Assembly (NCBI RefSeq): GCF_963977465.1
Contig: NZ_CAXBOQ010000003.1
Coordinates: 255,721 to 319,720, forward strand
Origin: an uncultured Brevundimonas sp.
GTDB taxonomy: Bacteria; Pseudomonadota; Alphaproteobacteria; Caulobacterales; Caulobacteraceae
DNA length: 64,000 nt
Direction: 5' to 3'
The translations under genes and the position numbers were made by a program. Numbering within the stretch: position 1 is the stretch's first letter; each line of letters opens with the position of its first letter. A model generated the notes under the pieces. That model made no database searches. It was not told the origin of the DNA and saw only the letters and a program-made list of their open reading frames with translations. Shown here piece by piece: positions 13,883-47,000 of this stretch.

Positions 13883-14376
13883 GGGGGACGGGCGGGTGTG
13901 ACCCCTCACCCGACCGCGCCAGTACGACGGCTGCGCCGCCGTGCGCCGTCTCCCTCTCCCGCAAGGGGCGAGGGAGCGTTGAAATCAGCGGCTATGCCTC
14001 GCTGTGGGGTGTGGCCGATCTGGACGGGGATGTGGTGGCGCGCGGGGCCTTCGCCGACAGTCTGGGCCGGACCGGTGCGGCCGGGGTGCGGATGCTGCAC
14101 CAGCATGAGGCGCGGGCGGTGGTCGGGGTCTGGGACAGGCTGGTCGAGGACGACCGTGGGCTGTTCGTCCGCGGACGGATCATGGACTGGTCGGCCGAGG
14201 CGCGCTTCGCCGCCGCCCTGGCCCGGGCCGGGGCGCTGGACGGACTGTCGATCGGGTTCAGGGCGGCCAGGGCAAGGCGCGAGGGGCGGCTGCGGGTGTT
14301 GAGTGCGGTTGCGCTGTGGGAGGTGTCGCTGGTGACCTTTCCGATGCTGCCGGGCGCGCGGTTCAGTGTGGTTTGA
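13879..14376 (+). CDS. HK97-family prohead protease with repeat-derived N-terminus
   Basis: ISGYASLWGVADLDGDVVARGAF, MLHQH, LDGLSIGFR, EVSLVTFPM; GTG start overlaps the upstream stop. Confidence 0.9.
   Translation: MRGTGGCDPSPDRASTTAAPPCAVSLSRKGRGSVEISGYASLWGVADLDGDVVARGAFADSLGRTGAAGVRMLHQHEARAVVGVWDRLVEDDRGLFVRGRIMDWSAEARFAAALARAGALDGLSIGFRAARARREGRLRVLSAVALWEVSLVTFPMLPGARFSVV
13902..13975. repeat. Palindromic REP/CIR-like arm (family A), inside protease ORF
   Basis: CCCCTCACCCGACCGCGCCAG...GTCTCCCTCTCCCGCAAGGGGCGAGGGA closely matches the reverse complement of 18442-18516. Confidence 0.85.
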
Positions 14377-17180: not shown

Positions 17181-18434
17181 ATGAAAGAGACCAAACAGGC
17201 CCCGGCCACGCCGGGGGCGCGCGCCGCCATGCACGAGATGATGGCGGCGTTCGAGGCGTTCAAAGGGGCCAATGACGCCCGGCTGGACGAGATCGAGAAG
17301 AAGGCGTCGGCCGATCCCCTGCTGGAGGCCAAGGTGGCGCGGATCGACCAGGCGGTGGCCAGCGCCCAGGCGCGGCTGGACCGGGTGGTTAGCGAGGGAA
17401 GGCGGCCGGAGCTTGGGGGCGGCTCCCCCTCCGACGGCTTCGCCGCCACCTCCCCCGAGAGGGGAGGAGTGGAGGAGACGAAGGCCGCGTTCGACGGCTA
17501 TCTGAAGACCGGGAATTCGAGCGGGCTGGAGCTGAAGACGGGGCTGTCGTCGGCGACGGATTCGGGGGGCTATGTGGTGCCACCGGAGACTGAGCGAGCC
17601 ATCGACCGGCGGCTGATGGCGGGGTCGCCGATGCGCGAGATCGCCACGGTGCGCACCATCGGGGCGGGCGTGTTTCGCAAGCCGGTGTCAACGGCCGGGG
17701 TGACGGCGGGCTGGGTCGCCGAGACCGCGCCGCGGCCGGAGACGGACCCGGCGACCCTGGCCCTGCTGGAGTTCCCGGCGGCCGATCTGTACGCCTCACC
17801 GGCGGCGACCCAGAGCCTGCTGGACGATGCCATGATCAATCTGGACGAATGGCTGGCGGCCGAGGTCGAGGATGCCTTCGCGGCCCAGGAGACCACGGCC
17901 TTTGTCAGCGGCGACGGGATCAACAAGCCGAAGGGGTTCCTGAGCTATGACATCGTCGCCGAGGCGGGCCATGGCTGGGGCGAGATCGGCTATGTGGCCT
18001 CGGGCGCGGCGGGGGCCTTTGCGGCTTCGAACCCGGGCGACCGGCTGATCGATCTGGTCTATGCGCCCAAGGCCCGCTACCGGCCCAACGGGCGGTTCGT
18101 GATGAACCGGCGGACGGTCTCGACCGTGCGTAAATTCAAGGACGCCGACGGCAACTATATCTGGCAGCCGGCGACGCGGGCTGGAGAGACGGCCTCGCTG
18201 CTGGGCTATCCGGTGACCGAGATCGAGACCATGCCGGACATCGCTGCCGACAGCGCCGCCATCGCCTTCGGCGACTTCCAGCGCGGCTATCTGATCGTCG
18301 ACCGGGCCGGGGTGCGGGTGCTGCGCGACCCGTATTCGGCCAAGCCCTATGTGCTGTTCTACACGACCAAGCGCGTCGGCGGCGGGGTGCAGAATTTCGA
18401 CGCCATCAAGGTGATGAAGTTTGCGGTGAGCTAG
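17181..18434 (+). CDS. HK97-fold major capsid protein
   Basis: DSGGYVVPPETERAIDR, SPMREIATV, FVSGDGINKPKGFL, AIAFGDFQRGYLIVDRAGVRVLRDPYSAKPYVLFYTTKRVGGGV; RBS GGAGA. Confidence 0.96.
   Translation: MKETKQAPATPGARAAMHEMMAAFEAFKGANDARLDEIEKKASADPLLEAKVARIDQAVASAQARLDRVVSEGRRPELGGGSPSDGFAATSPERGGVEETKAAFDGYLKTGNSSGLELKTGLSSATDSGGYVVPPETERAIDRRLMAGSPMREIATVRTIGAGVFRKPVSTAGVTAGWVAETAPRPETDPATLALLEFPAADLYASPAATQSLLDDAMINLDEWLAAEVEDAFAAQETTAFVSGDGINKPKGFLSYDIVAEAGHGWGEIGYVASGAAGAFAASNPGDRLIDLVYAPKARYRPNGRFVMNRRTVSTVRKFKDADGNYIWQPATRAGETASLLGYPVTEIETMPDIAADSAAIAFGDFQRGYLIVDRAGVRVLRDPYSAKPYVLFYTTKRVGGGVQNFDAIKVMKFAVS
17423..17469. repeat. Palindromic arm (family A-related subfamily), in frame in capsid gene
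   Basis: CTCCCCCTCCGACGGCTTCGCCGCCACCTCCCCCGAGAGGGGAGGAG; same CCCCTC-hairpin-CACCTCCCC-GGGGAG layout as 20505-20558 and 37825-37876. Confidence 0.7.
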
Positions 18435-18441
18435 CTACGGA

Positions 18442-18600
18442 TCCCTCTCCCCTTGCGGGAGAGGGAGACTGCGCCCGGCCGCGACAGCGGCCGTTCTGGC
18501 GCGGTCGGATGAGGGGTCGAACAGACGCCTGACGATCGCTCGGTTTGACCCCTCATCCGACCCGCTTCGCGGGCCACCTTCTCCTGCAAGGGGAGAAGGA
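18442..18600. repeat. Two-armed palindromic element (family A) without a gene
   Basis: Left arm TCCCTCTCCCCTTGCGGGAGAGGG...GGATGAGGGG; ~30-nt spacer; right arm CCCCTCATCCG...CACCTTCTCCTGCAAGGGGAGAAGGA. Confidence 0.9.
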
Positions 18601-20323: not shown

Positions 20324-20568
20324 CGCCGTGGGGCGAGATGCTGCGGGTGGCGGCGCGGGCCGGGGTGACGCCTGCGGCCTTCTGGCAACTGTCGCTGAAG
20401 GAATGGCGGATGCTGACGGACCGGCCGCAGGGGCTGGTGCCGATGGGGCGGGACGGGTTCGAGCGGATGATGACGGCGTGGCCGGATGAGGCGGGTGGGG
20501 AGCATTCCCCTCCACCGCTACGCGGTCCCCCTCCCCATCGCTGCGCGACGGGGAGGAGACAGACGTGA
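20320..20568 (+). CDS. Phage tail assembly chaperone with repeat-derived C-terminus
   Basis: WGEMLR...GVTPAAFWQLSLKEW...MMTAWPD core. Confidence 0.8.
   Translation: MTPWGEMLRVAARAGVTPAAFWQLSLKEWRMLTDRPQGLVPMGRDGFERMMTAWPDEAGGEHSPPPLRGPPPHRCATGRRQT
20505..20558. repeat. Palindromic arm (family A-related subfamily), in frame in chaperone gene
   Basis: TTCCCCTCCACCGCTACGCGGTCCCCCTCCCCATCGCTGCGCGACGGGGAGGAG. Confidence 0.75.
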
Positions 20569-37404: not shown

Positions 37405-37440
37405 GGGCGGCTCCGGTAGAAGGGGGTCGGCTGTTGTTAT

Positions 37441-37876
37441 CCCTTCTCCCCTCGTGGGAGAAGGTGGCTCGCGCAGCGAGACGGATGAGGGGGATGGCAG
37501 GCCAGCCCAATCGTTTGAGAGCGACGATGACCTTCGCCGAGATGGCGATGTGGGCGTTGCTGCGTCGGCGCGGCTTTGAAGGCTGGAAATTCCGTCGCCA
37601 GACCCGCATCGGCCCGTGGATCGCCGACTTCTGCTGCTACGATCTGAAACTGGTCATCGAGCTGGACGGCGGCGTGCATCGCCTGCGCGAGGCCGAGGAC
37701 AGGGCGCGTGACGCCGATCTGGCCCGGAGAGGTTTTACTGTTCTGAGGTTTGGTAATGAGGCGATCCTGACCAATCCGAACCTGATGCTGGAGGCCATCC
37801 GCCGCCATGCTGCGGACCGACCACCCCCTCATCCGTCAGGCTCCGCCTGACACCTTCTCCCACGAGGGGAGAAGGG
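37441..37876 (+). mobile_element. DUF559 gene bracketed by inverted palindromic arms (putative autonomous element)
   Basis: Arms 37441-37492 and 37825-37876: outer 26 bp and inner 13 bp are perfect inverted repeats around different internal hairpins. Confidence 0.7.
37485..37850 (+). CDS. DUF559 (Vsr-like) endonuclease-domain protein
   Basis: [29 protein letters not shown]...RDADL...GFTVLRFGN; start 37485 or 37494. Confidence 0.9.
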
Positions 37877-37881
37877 ACGGT

Positions 37882-37983
37882 TTAGATGACCGTGCCGCCC
37901 TGCAACGGCGCGTTGAAGCCCACGCGGACCAGGGCGGTCTTGCAGGCGAGGTCATTGGCATCGTCGAGGGTGCGGAAGGTTAT
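37882..37983 (-). pseudogene. Decayed duplicate of the pgk 5' end
   Basis: Reads ATA(I)[36 protein letters not shown] versus pgk [37 protein letters not shown]; 20 nt after the start codon are identical. Confidence 0.85.
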
Positions 37984-37987
37984 GGAA

Positions 37988-38274
37988 TCAGATTCCAACA
38001 TCAAAGCCGGCGATTACACCGATCCAAAACAAACTGTAGCCGACGACCCAGATGAATGCGGCTTTTCCAACCTGCATGGCGACCTCGTGGTGCCGCATCC
38101 CTTTTGCATCGCCTGAAACGGAGGCTGACCTCCATCGATGCCCGATGAAGACTATTGCCAACGCACCTGCCGCCAGCAACGTTGCCACCATGGCAGGGCC
38201 GAACGGCGGCCAGGCACCAAAGCCCATGACGTAAGCCCAACCCAGCAACGTCAGGCCAGCCGCAATCCTAATCA

Positions 38275-38275
<1 letters not shown>
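37988..38275 (-). CDS. Small membrane protein, lower GC than flanks
   Basis: 95 aa, about three hydrophobic segments; ATG overlaps the gap stop (TGATG). Confidence 0.6.
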
Positions 38276-39282
<1,007 letters not shown>

Positions 39283-46834: not shown

Positions 46835-47000
46835 GGCGGGTCTTGCTGCGGCCCTCGTCGAAGGCAACATTCCTCGCGACCTTAATTCACTCAAAGGGAT
46901 CTGTCCCTGTCCGGGCTCGAGGGCCTGGGCATATGGAGCCCACCTGGCTACCCAGGTCTGAGAGGATTTCAACGCTCTTCACGGTTCTTGCGGCGCCGCC
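46835..47000 (+). ncRNA. ssrS: 6S RNA
   Basis: Canonical zapA-ssrS-ygfA position; GGCGG/CCGCC paired ends; AAAGGGATCTGTCCCTG and GCCCACCT resemble alphaproteobacterial 6S; ends approximate. Confidence 0.8.

Follow-up and report, generated by a model that had tools for sequence, protein, structure and literature searches.

A DUF559 endonuclease gene between inverted triplex-type repeats in the gap-pgk-fba operon of Brevundimonas: a candidate nuclease partner of TM/BoxC repeats

The cassette between gap and pgk

The window, that is, the whole stretch of 64,000 nucleotides of Brevundimonas DNA that was analysed, contained a cassette of approximately 436 bp in which an intact DUF559 endonuclease gene was enclosed by two inverted arms, each with the layout of an intrastrand-triplex motif. 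The gene lay antisense between gap (38275..) and pgk (..37404), with fba located after pgk. The elements of the cassette and of the adjoining pgk leader were as follows.

37405..37439, - strand: pgk leader, 35 nt from the left arm to the pgk start codon, with GGAG as the likely ribosome-binding site; the leader is common to the relative G053
37440..37493, + strand: left arm, a single intrastrand-triplex motif in + strand orientation
37442-37450 and 37456-37464, + strand: outer hairpin of the left arm, CCTTCTCCC and GGGAGAAGG, respectively, with the loop CTCGT
37469-37481, + strand: linker mini-hairpin of the left arm, CTCGC-GCA-GCGAG
37483-37493, + strand: G-rich third strand of the left arm, GGATGAGGGGG, containing ATG 37485
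37494..37850, + strand: DUF559 (Vsr-like PD-(D/E)XK) gene, 118 aa from ATG 37494 or 121 aa from ATG 37485
37824..37877, - strand: right arm, the same triplex motif as in the left arm
37824-37834, - strand: third-strand complement of the right arm, CCCCCTCATCC
37835-37851, - strand: linker mini-hairpin of the right arm, GTCAGGC-TCC-GCCTGAC
37853-37875, - strand: outer hairpin of the right arm

The arms (37440-37493 and 37824-37877) were 54 nt each and 89% complementary. Their outer 26 nt, CCCTTCTCCCCTCGTGGGAGAAGGTG, occurred exactly twice in the window, at 37441-37466 (+) and 37851-37876 (-), with 0 occurrences expected from shuffled sequences, and their inner 13 nt, GACGGATGAGGGG, were found as perfect copies at 37480 (+) and 37825 (-) and as one-mismatch copies at 18504 and 18549. 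The central 13-17 nt were unlike between the left and right arms and had a mini-hairpin fold of their own in each. The first in-frame ATG (37485) was inside the left arm, followed by a second ATG at 37494, and the last nine codons of the gene (tail PPPHPSGSA) together with the stop codon TGA (37848-37850) were encoded by the right arm. A sequence-only reading of the same DNA had described perfect outer (26 bp) and inner (13 bp) inverted repeats with differing hairpins between them, a start codon in the left arm, the PPPHPSGSA terminus in the right arm, and an antisense position within a gap-pgk-fba operon; the exact matches on both strands, the dissimilar middles that each pair, the coordinates, and the gene order are all in agreement with that description. 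An Rfam scan of the window revealed no family matching the arms, its single match being a 6S RNA (RF00013, 49.6 bits, 46840-47000 (+)).

The ORF ending at 37850 was assigned to the Pfam family DUF559 (PF04480; E-value = 9e-33, 112.9 bits, the curated cut-off being 20.6; match to profile positions 7-106 of 109), as had been supposed when the gene was first called a Vsr-like DUF559 nuclease. The D...ExDGxxH core was intact, and residues D45, E56, D58, and H62 were invariant across all six paralogues of the genome. The cassette protein was similar to PDB 3HRL (E-value = 3e-18), and a profile built from the six local DUF559 proteins retrieved 3HRL, PvuRts1I, and I-Bth0305I (PDB 3R3P), with which the same four residues aligned. 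PvuRts1I, a restriction enzyme, and I-Bth0305I, a homing endonuclease of the Vsr-like 'EDxHD' family, are both active endonucleases. DUF559 proteins form a very large family to which, as far as we know, no function has been assigned, and PD-(D/E)XK nucleases hydrolyse DNA, with no strand-transfer activity that we know of. The Caulobacter DUF559 protein VsrA triggers an SOS response in vivo, which is indirect evidence for a putative endonuclease activity of the family, and has been tied to a cytosine methylase (PMC12907096).

Triplex-type arms and their distribution in the genome

By Watson-Crick folding of the single strand, each arm gave a 9-bp pyrimidine/purine hairpin (CCTTCTCCC-CTCGT-GGGAGAAGG), a mini-hairpin of 5-7 bp, and an unpaired G-rich tail (GGATGAGGGGG); the folding was modelled with Watson-Crick pairs alone, and the triplex was read from the sequence rule. 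The tail corresponded to the reversed purine stem with A kept as A or replaced by T, as is required of a third strand in the antiparallel purine motif (G for G, A or T for A), and the third strand GGATGAGGG was the reverse of GGGAGAAGG. A perfect (9/9) antiparallel third strand was located not more than 70 nt away from 29 of the 31 hairpins of this family (family A) in the genome, compared with 1/31 in the parallel control, a contrast that was clean in family A only; the remaining two of the 31 hairpins had no third strand. By eye, each of the four arm families has a third-strand motif that is its purine stem read backwards (GGGTG[AT]GGG for GGGAGAGGG, GGGATGGGGG for GGGGGAAGGG, and GGAGGGGG for GGGGGAGG). 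The linkers of the 31 family-A arms were represented by 22 distinct sequences, of which a perfect stem of at least 5 bp was formed in 81% of arms versus 6% of shuffled linkers. Genome-wide, the linker loops of family-A arms were mostly GNA triloops closed by C-G (GCGAAGC, GCGCAGC, CCGAAGG). Since GNA triloops of the GCGAAGC type form an exceptionally stable DNA mini-hairpin, such linkers hint at a structure of the DNA rather than of RNA.

The genome (Brevundimonas, 3.15 Mb) contained six DUF559 genes, all six of which were located between inverted arms of the same design, belonging to four arm families. A scan for pyrimidine/purine hairpins revealed 102 of them, as against 1 in the reversed sequence, and besides the six cassettes their grouping gave approximately 33 gene-less two-hairpin elements (130-170 bp) and 23 hairpins that stood alone. 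At least one DUF559 gene belonged to each of the stem families A-D, and gene-less pairs outnumbered DUF559 genes by about 10 to 1. Arm-bearing sites in the window besides the cassette included the following.

13902..13975: single arm belonging to sister family B (CCCCTCACCC ... CTCCCTCTCCC-GCAA-GGGGCGAGGGAG), inside a coding sequence
17423..17469: single family-D arm (CCCCCTCC ... CCTCCCCC-GAGA-GGGGAGG), within the capsid gene
18442..18600: gene-less two-armed element located downstream of the GTA capsid gene, with the left arm from family B, a 32-nt centre, and the right arm from family A
20505..20555: single looser arm of the family D type

The gene-less arms noted earlier at 13902, 17423, 18442, and 20505 exist. 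The one at 18442 is a two-armed B/A element, and the other three are single arms that belong to sister families (B and D) and not to the family of the cassette arms. The arms at 13902-13975 and 17423-17469 were read in frame inside GTA head genes (the N-terminus of the prohead protease and the major capsid protein, respectively), so that the repeats are tolerated within coding sequence.

No centre of a gene-less pair had significant similarity to the DUF559 gene when tested against shuffled sequences, and the centres also differed from one another; they are thus neither internal-deletion derivatives nor recent copies of a master element. One centre, taken by eye for a remnant of the gene start, was rejected as such on the same test. 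The single RAYT-like Y1 transposase gene (Y1_Tnp) of the genome was located on contig C4 (166126-167115) and did not adjoin these arms. It sits between two CoA-transferase subunit genes and is apparently bordered by its own GGGCCGTC-type repeats, with RGPSGP in the translation on both sides; RAYT was rejected as an alternative mobiliser because this sole Y1-type gene has flanking repeats of its own that are different from the arms.

According to their sequence, the arms represent a variant architecture of the published intrastrand-triplex class known as TM/BoxC, the triplex itself being putative. Holder et al. (2015; NAR 43:10126, PMC4666352) described G/C-rich intrastrand triplex motifs, often arranged in inverted pairs, from more than 260 genomes, and the TM or TM_ECO repeats are also named BoxC or PIT elements (Hoyne and Maher 2000; Bachellier 1999; both as cited in PMC4666352). 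Similarly to the E. coli motif (CCCTCGCCCC-TCTG-GGGAGAGGG-TTA-GGGTGAGGGG), the arms have a homopyrimidine-loop-homopurine hairpin (9-bp CCTTCTCCC/GGGAGAAGG stems) followed by a G-rich third strand that obeys the antiparallel purine-motif rule; both kinds of repeat are present in many copies, frequently as inverted pairs, in many bacteria, and at loci unusually rearranged between close strains. They differ in that the linker of approximately 3 nt and the unit of approximately 36 nt of TM_ECO are replaced here by a mini-hairpin linker of 14-20 nt and a unit of approximately 54 nt, and in that four families coexist in one genome. TM loci were significantly more rearranged between E. coli strains (Holder 2015, PMC4666352); the same paper states that no transposase or integrase was found near TM repeats, and DUF559, ycjD, and 'endonuclease' are absent from its text, whereas here every DUF559 gene of the genome was inside an arm pair. 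The sequence-only reading had thus given the anatomy of the arms correctly but had overlooked their triplex (TM/BoxC) class, which is published as unstable.

CIR elements (CcrM-associated intergenic repeats), described in Caulobacter and its relatives (Chen and Shapiro 2003, as presented in PMC2229807), are likewise gene-less and consist of two long inverted-repeat arms and a linker (approximately 110-190 bp in total). Compared by description, the local elements resemble them in their paired inverted arms and in that several centres carry GANTC; they differ in that CIR elements, in the account given in PMC2229807, are not linked to a nuclease. The GANTC sequences, i.e., the CcrM methylation site, were seen as GAGTC or GATTC, e.g., in the centres at C1:451621, C2:387375, and C5:305950.

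The way in which the arms overlap the ends of the gene could also mean that they serve as a cis-regulatory frame, insulating the gene, terminating or attenuating read-through, supplying the ribosome-binding site, start, or stop, or holding a toxic nuclease at a very low level, with gene-less arms as leftovers of dead cassettes. The third strand GGATGAGGGGG carries a Shine-Dalgarno-like GAGG and an ATG, the stop codon is in the right arm, a search for a promoter-like site for the DUF559 gene found none, and cassettes decay in place to single arms. Such a frame is nevertheless highly improbable, given that the tenfold more numerous gene-less pairs have centres with no gene remnant, that the triplex rule and the linker fold are kept even far from any gene, and that the start codon is 60-100 nt from the arm in the other cassettes of the genome.

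Recurrence of the gene-arm unit and turnover of arm sites

Eighty DUF559 loci were taken from species-representative genomes, the sample including Acidobacteriota, Binatia, Chloroflexota, Cyanobacteria, Bacteroidota, a CPR bacterium, Nitrospinota, and several proteobacterial classes, and 78 of these loci were scorable. A flanking inverted repeat with a score of at least 16 was found at 55 of the 78 loci versus 0 of 146 control windows shifted by 900 bp within the same loci, and an arm motif of the form CCCTCTCCC-loop-GGGAGAGGG...GGGTGAGGG was common to multiple phyla. The enterobacterial copies in the sample mostly had no inverted-repeat score, and BoxC-type hairpins were present beside two of them (L034 of Serratia and L042 of Erwinia). 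Across phyla, DUF559 genes and arms recur together as a unit. The earlier view that gene and arms belong together thus holds both in this genome and beyond it, and the general lack of arms at DUF559 genes, which had been named as evidence against it, is the contrary of what was found, with 55/78 loci and 6/6 local genes framed. A literature search for a described link between DUF559 and a repeat found none, returning only a table row that names DUF559 among predicted inversion targets.

Co-variation of the gene with free repeats, proposed at the outset as a check, was also found. Among 201 Alphaproteobacteria drawn across families, a strong DUF559 match and at least three hairpins were found together in 35 genomes, the gene alone in 14, the hairpins alone in 10, and neither in 142 (odds ratio 35.5, Fisher 5e-19, phylogeny not corrected for). 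Within 41 Brevundimonas genomes, the number of hairpins (1-148) increased with the number of genes (0-8; Spearman 0.51, p = 7e-4, phylogeny not corrected for). Hairpin-rich genomes with no DUF559 gene included G183, G232, G036, and G007 (52, 70, 36, and 18 hairpins, respectively), and 14 of the 49 DUF559-bearing genomes had none or at most one hairpin of the searched pattern. In a tree of 46 DUF559 proteins, the arm families were clustered (10 changes compared with 17.6 in shuffles, 0/1000 being as low); at least 10 changes of arm family on this tree mean that the sequence-specific pairing of enzyme and arm is loose, i.e., inherited but not rigid.

In five family-A cassettes (two from this genome and three from other Brevundimonas), the arms were 91-100% identical and the genes 69-83% identical; the constraint on the arms is thus much stronger even than that on the protein sequence. 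The genes of these cassettes had dS values of 0.6-2.3 and dN/dS values of 0.08-0.19, which means that they are old copies and that the protein is functional and under purifying selection. In this genome, the family-A genes were two ancient paralogues (dS 1.3); thus, no recent copying of the gene was seen.

The gap-pgk spacer was compared in 19 genomes, G053 and several other relatives being metagenome bins. The family-A cassette was found in the antisense orientation in this genome, in B. diminuta 470-4, and in one MAG, while the gene in G001 and G018 was in the sense orientation, belonged to another DUF559 subtype, and had arms of family B (left) and family A (right); this difference in subtype and arms led to the rejection of the idea that the G001/G018 cassette was the same gene inverted. 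A gene-less pair was found in G004, one lone hairpin in G053, only a degenerate hairpin relic in G003, and nothing of the kind in eleven genomes. The locus, whose fixation across the genus had been offered as an argument against mobility, is thus not fixed. In B. sanguinis and G001 (L022 and L018, positions 941-1515), where the spacer holds this other subtype in the opposite orientation between arms of two families, one cassette appears to have been replaced by another with the pgk-side arm kept. The gap-pgk spacers of relatives contain unrelated small membrane-like ORFs, and a small hydrophobic ORF (approximately 95-114 aa) with no Pfam match is present in the window at 37988-38332 (-), between gap and a dead pgk start.

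The flanks of the site in G053 were 90-95% identical to those of this genome, and GTTGTTA-[hairpin ... gene ... hairpin]-CGG here corresponded to GTTGTTA-TCCCTTCTCCCCTCGTGGGAGAAGGGA-CGA in G053. The lone hairpin of G053 was exactly at the cassette position and combined the loop of the left hairpin of this genome with the tail of the right one. Since each outer hairpin is itself palindromic, the two are direct as well as inverted repeats, and a crossover inside the 9-bp purine stem would give exactly the G053 product. The G053 state is read as cassette loss and not as an unoccupied target, because hairpins with no third strand are rare (2/31). The cassette would then be old at gap-pgk, a position common to the B. 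diminuta group, and G053 would have lost it via recombination between the two outer hairpins.

The right arm was directly followed by a further trace of rearrangement.

37882..37983, - strand: dead copy of the first approximately 33 pgk codons, with ATA for ATG and an in-frame stop, abutting the right arm

This dead pgk start was 84% identical to the live 5' end, was devoid of the 12-nt insertion of the live gene, and directly followed a native-looking small membrane-protein ORF, as live pgk does in several relatives. The bases between the right arm and dead pgk (CGGTTTAGAT) resembled the spacer from the arm to the gap stop in B. diminuta (CGGTGTTTCAGAT). In B. diminuta-type genomes, the gap stop and the pgk start had the same cassette directly between them, and no duplication was present, and G053 had a different dead-pgk-plus-small-ORF segment at the same place. 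The dead pgk start as a scar of the cassette entering pgk was rejected on these grounds, namely, the missing 12-nt insertion, the continuity with the upstream ORF, the absence of duplication in B. diminuta, and the different segment in G053. Dead pgk may instead be a foreign gap-ORF-pgk' fragment captured beside the resident cassette through homologous recombination on the side of gap and illegitimate joining at the edge of the hairpin; the difference between the segments of this genome and G053 suggests repeated capture of gap-ORF-pgk' DNA at that edge.

Fourteen arm-bearing loci of this genome were compared with G053, and the same element was present in both genomes at only a minority of them. 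All that was left of the C6 cassette in G053, after a deletion with CGCCG microhomology, was its right arm with the terminal 35 nt of the gene, and the family-C cassette was a pseudogene there. Gene-less family-A pairs were replaced in situ in G053 by a B/A element at C4:19766 and by a C/D-like element at C6:162631; three arm sites held unrelated DNA in the comparison, and one was empty, with the neighbouring genes overlapping. The cassette at C1:301526 was 96% identical in both genomes, with homology stopping exactly at the outer edge of the left hairpin, and homology between close genomes often broke exactly at an outer hairpin. The C5 cassette had a tandem array of extra arm pairs alongside; at its orthologue in G053 (L121, G053:C51:11550-14100), four to five hybrid arm pairs (B + A, with a period of approximately 270 bp) adjoin the cassette. 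Arm-bearing sites turn over very fast between a cassette, another cassette, a gene-less pair, a lone hairpin, and unrelated DNA, which matches the published instability of TM loci (Holder 2015, PMC4666352).

The sequence-only reading had proposed that DUF559 is a true mobiliser, excising and reinserting arm pairs as RAYT does for REPINs, with the gene-less pairs as the non-autonomous members of the system. The cassette is laid out like a RAYT gene between inverted copies of the RAYT repeat, a nuclease gene resides in all four arm families, hairpin number climbs with gene number in the genus, and presence or absence is precise at the outer hairpin. As in REPIN-RAYT systems, an enzyme gene of low copy number, vertically kept and under purifying selection, is flanked by inverted hairpin repeats, and the same repeat is dispersed as tens to hundreds of gene-less singlets or doublets. 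The enzyme, however, is a Y1/HUH tyrosine transposase there and a PD-(D/E)XK hydrolase of the DUF559 family here, and the repeat is of the triplex type here. No target-site duplication was found at approximately 15 inspected element ends, and the gene-less centres, unrelated to the gene and to each other, are not its internal-deletion derivatives, so that neither mark of a MITE and its autonomous transposon was seen. A transposase-like mobiliser is therefore very unlikely, the gene copies being ancient and under purifying selection and the PD-(D/E)XK fold having no known strand-transfer activity. Of the earlier mobile-system proposal, the gene-arm unit, its roughly tenfold excess of gene-less copies, and the polymorphic locus stand, whereas the autonomous/non-autonomous transposon relation is not supported, given the unlike centres, the lack of target duplications, the dS of 0.6-2.3 with purifying selection, and the chemistry of the enzyme.

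A possible action of the nuclease on folded arms

To our knowledge, neither a partner enzyme nor an account of their spread and conservation has been found for the BoxC/TM repeats in the roughly thirty years since their discovery. DUF559 is the best candidate for such a partner. The nuclease may recognise or cut the folded arm, a structure that would form on single-stranded DNA, after which arms and whole cassettes would be copied, homogenised, exchanged, or deleted at arm sites through host recombination and repair, in a process resembling homing or gene conversion and not transposase chemistry. That the nuclease acts on folded arms in this way, with host repair doing the rest, is suggested by the sequence comparisons and is held here tentatively, at somewhat less than an even chance. 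The more specific proposal, that DUF559 is the missing TM/BoxC partner, cutting the folded single-stranded arm and driving break-induced copying by which arms are kept alike and multiplied and cassettes exchanged, must be placed on the unlikely side.

The homing-like character of the proposal agrees with the presence or absence of the cassette at a fixed site and with its decaying copies among relatives. The homing endonuclease I-Bth0305I (PDB 3R3P), of the Vsr-like 'EDxHD' group, shares with the present case the nuclease core and the occurrence of intact, decaying, and lost copies at one site. In contrast to it, no intron or intein is involved here, the cassette being free-standing between palindromic arms, and the putative target is a dispersed repeat and not a conserved gene.

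The observed turnover needs no dedicated nuclease, because triplex and hairpin repeats are unstable by themselves. The gene could then be a passenger among arms that spread and rearrange alone by slippage and template switching, with the nuclease having an unrelated task, e.g., one linked to mismatches or methylation in the manner of Vsr, as proposed for Caulobacter VsrA. Consistent with this, TM repeats have been tied to genomic instability with no enzyme involved (Holder 2015, PMC4666352), VsrA is linked to a cytosine methylase (PMC12907096), many-hairpin genomes with no DUF559 gene exist, the gene copies are old and vertically kept, and the G053 deletion is explicable by 9-bp direct repeats brought together by the palindrome. 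A mere passenger would, however, leave unexplained why DUF559 specifically is framed (6/6 here, and 55/78 against 0/146), why the arms overlap both start and stop, and why the co-occurrence odds ratio is 35; moreover, the two longer arm-bounded stretches that were examined contained ordinary genes with an arm at each end and were not tight cassettes. We consider the passenger explanation unlikely.

If the nuclease does act on the arms, this would be a second nuclease-repeat partnership, independent in origin from REP/RAYT and operating by homing-like repair instead of transposition. Four arm families, each with a nuclease gene, together with a close relative differing at most of the compared arm sites, make this genome a convenient test bed. 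A firm link between DUF559 and the repeat would give a function to both. If true, it would represent a new kind of selfish or domesticated nuclease-repeat system and would account for local genome instability beside housekeeping operons, as here in gap-pgk-fba.
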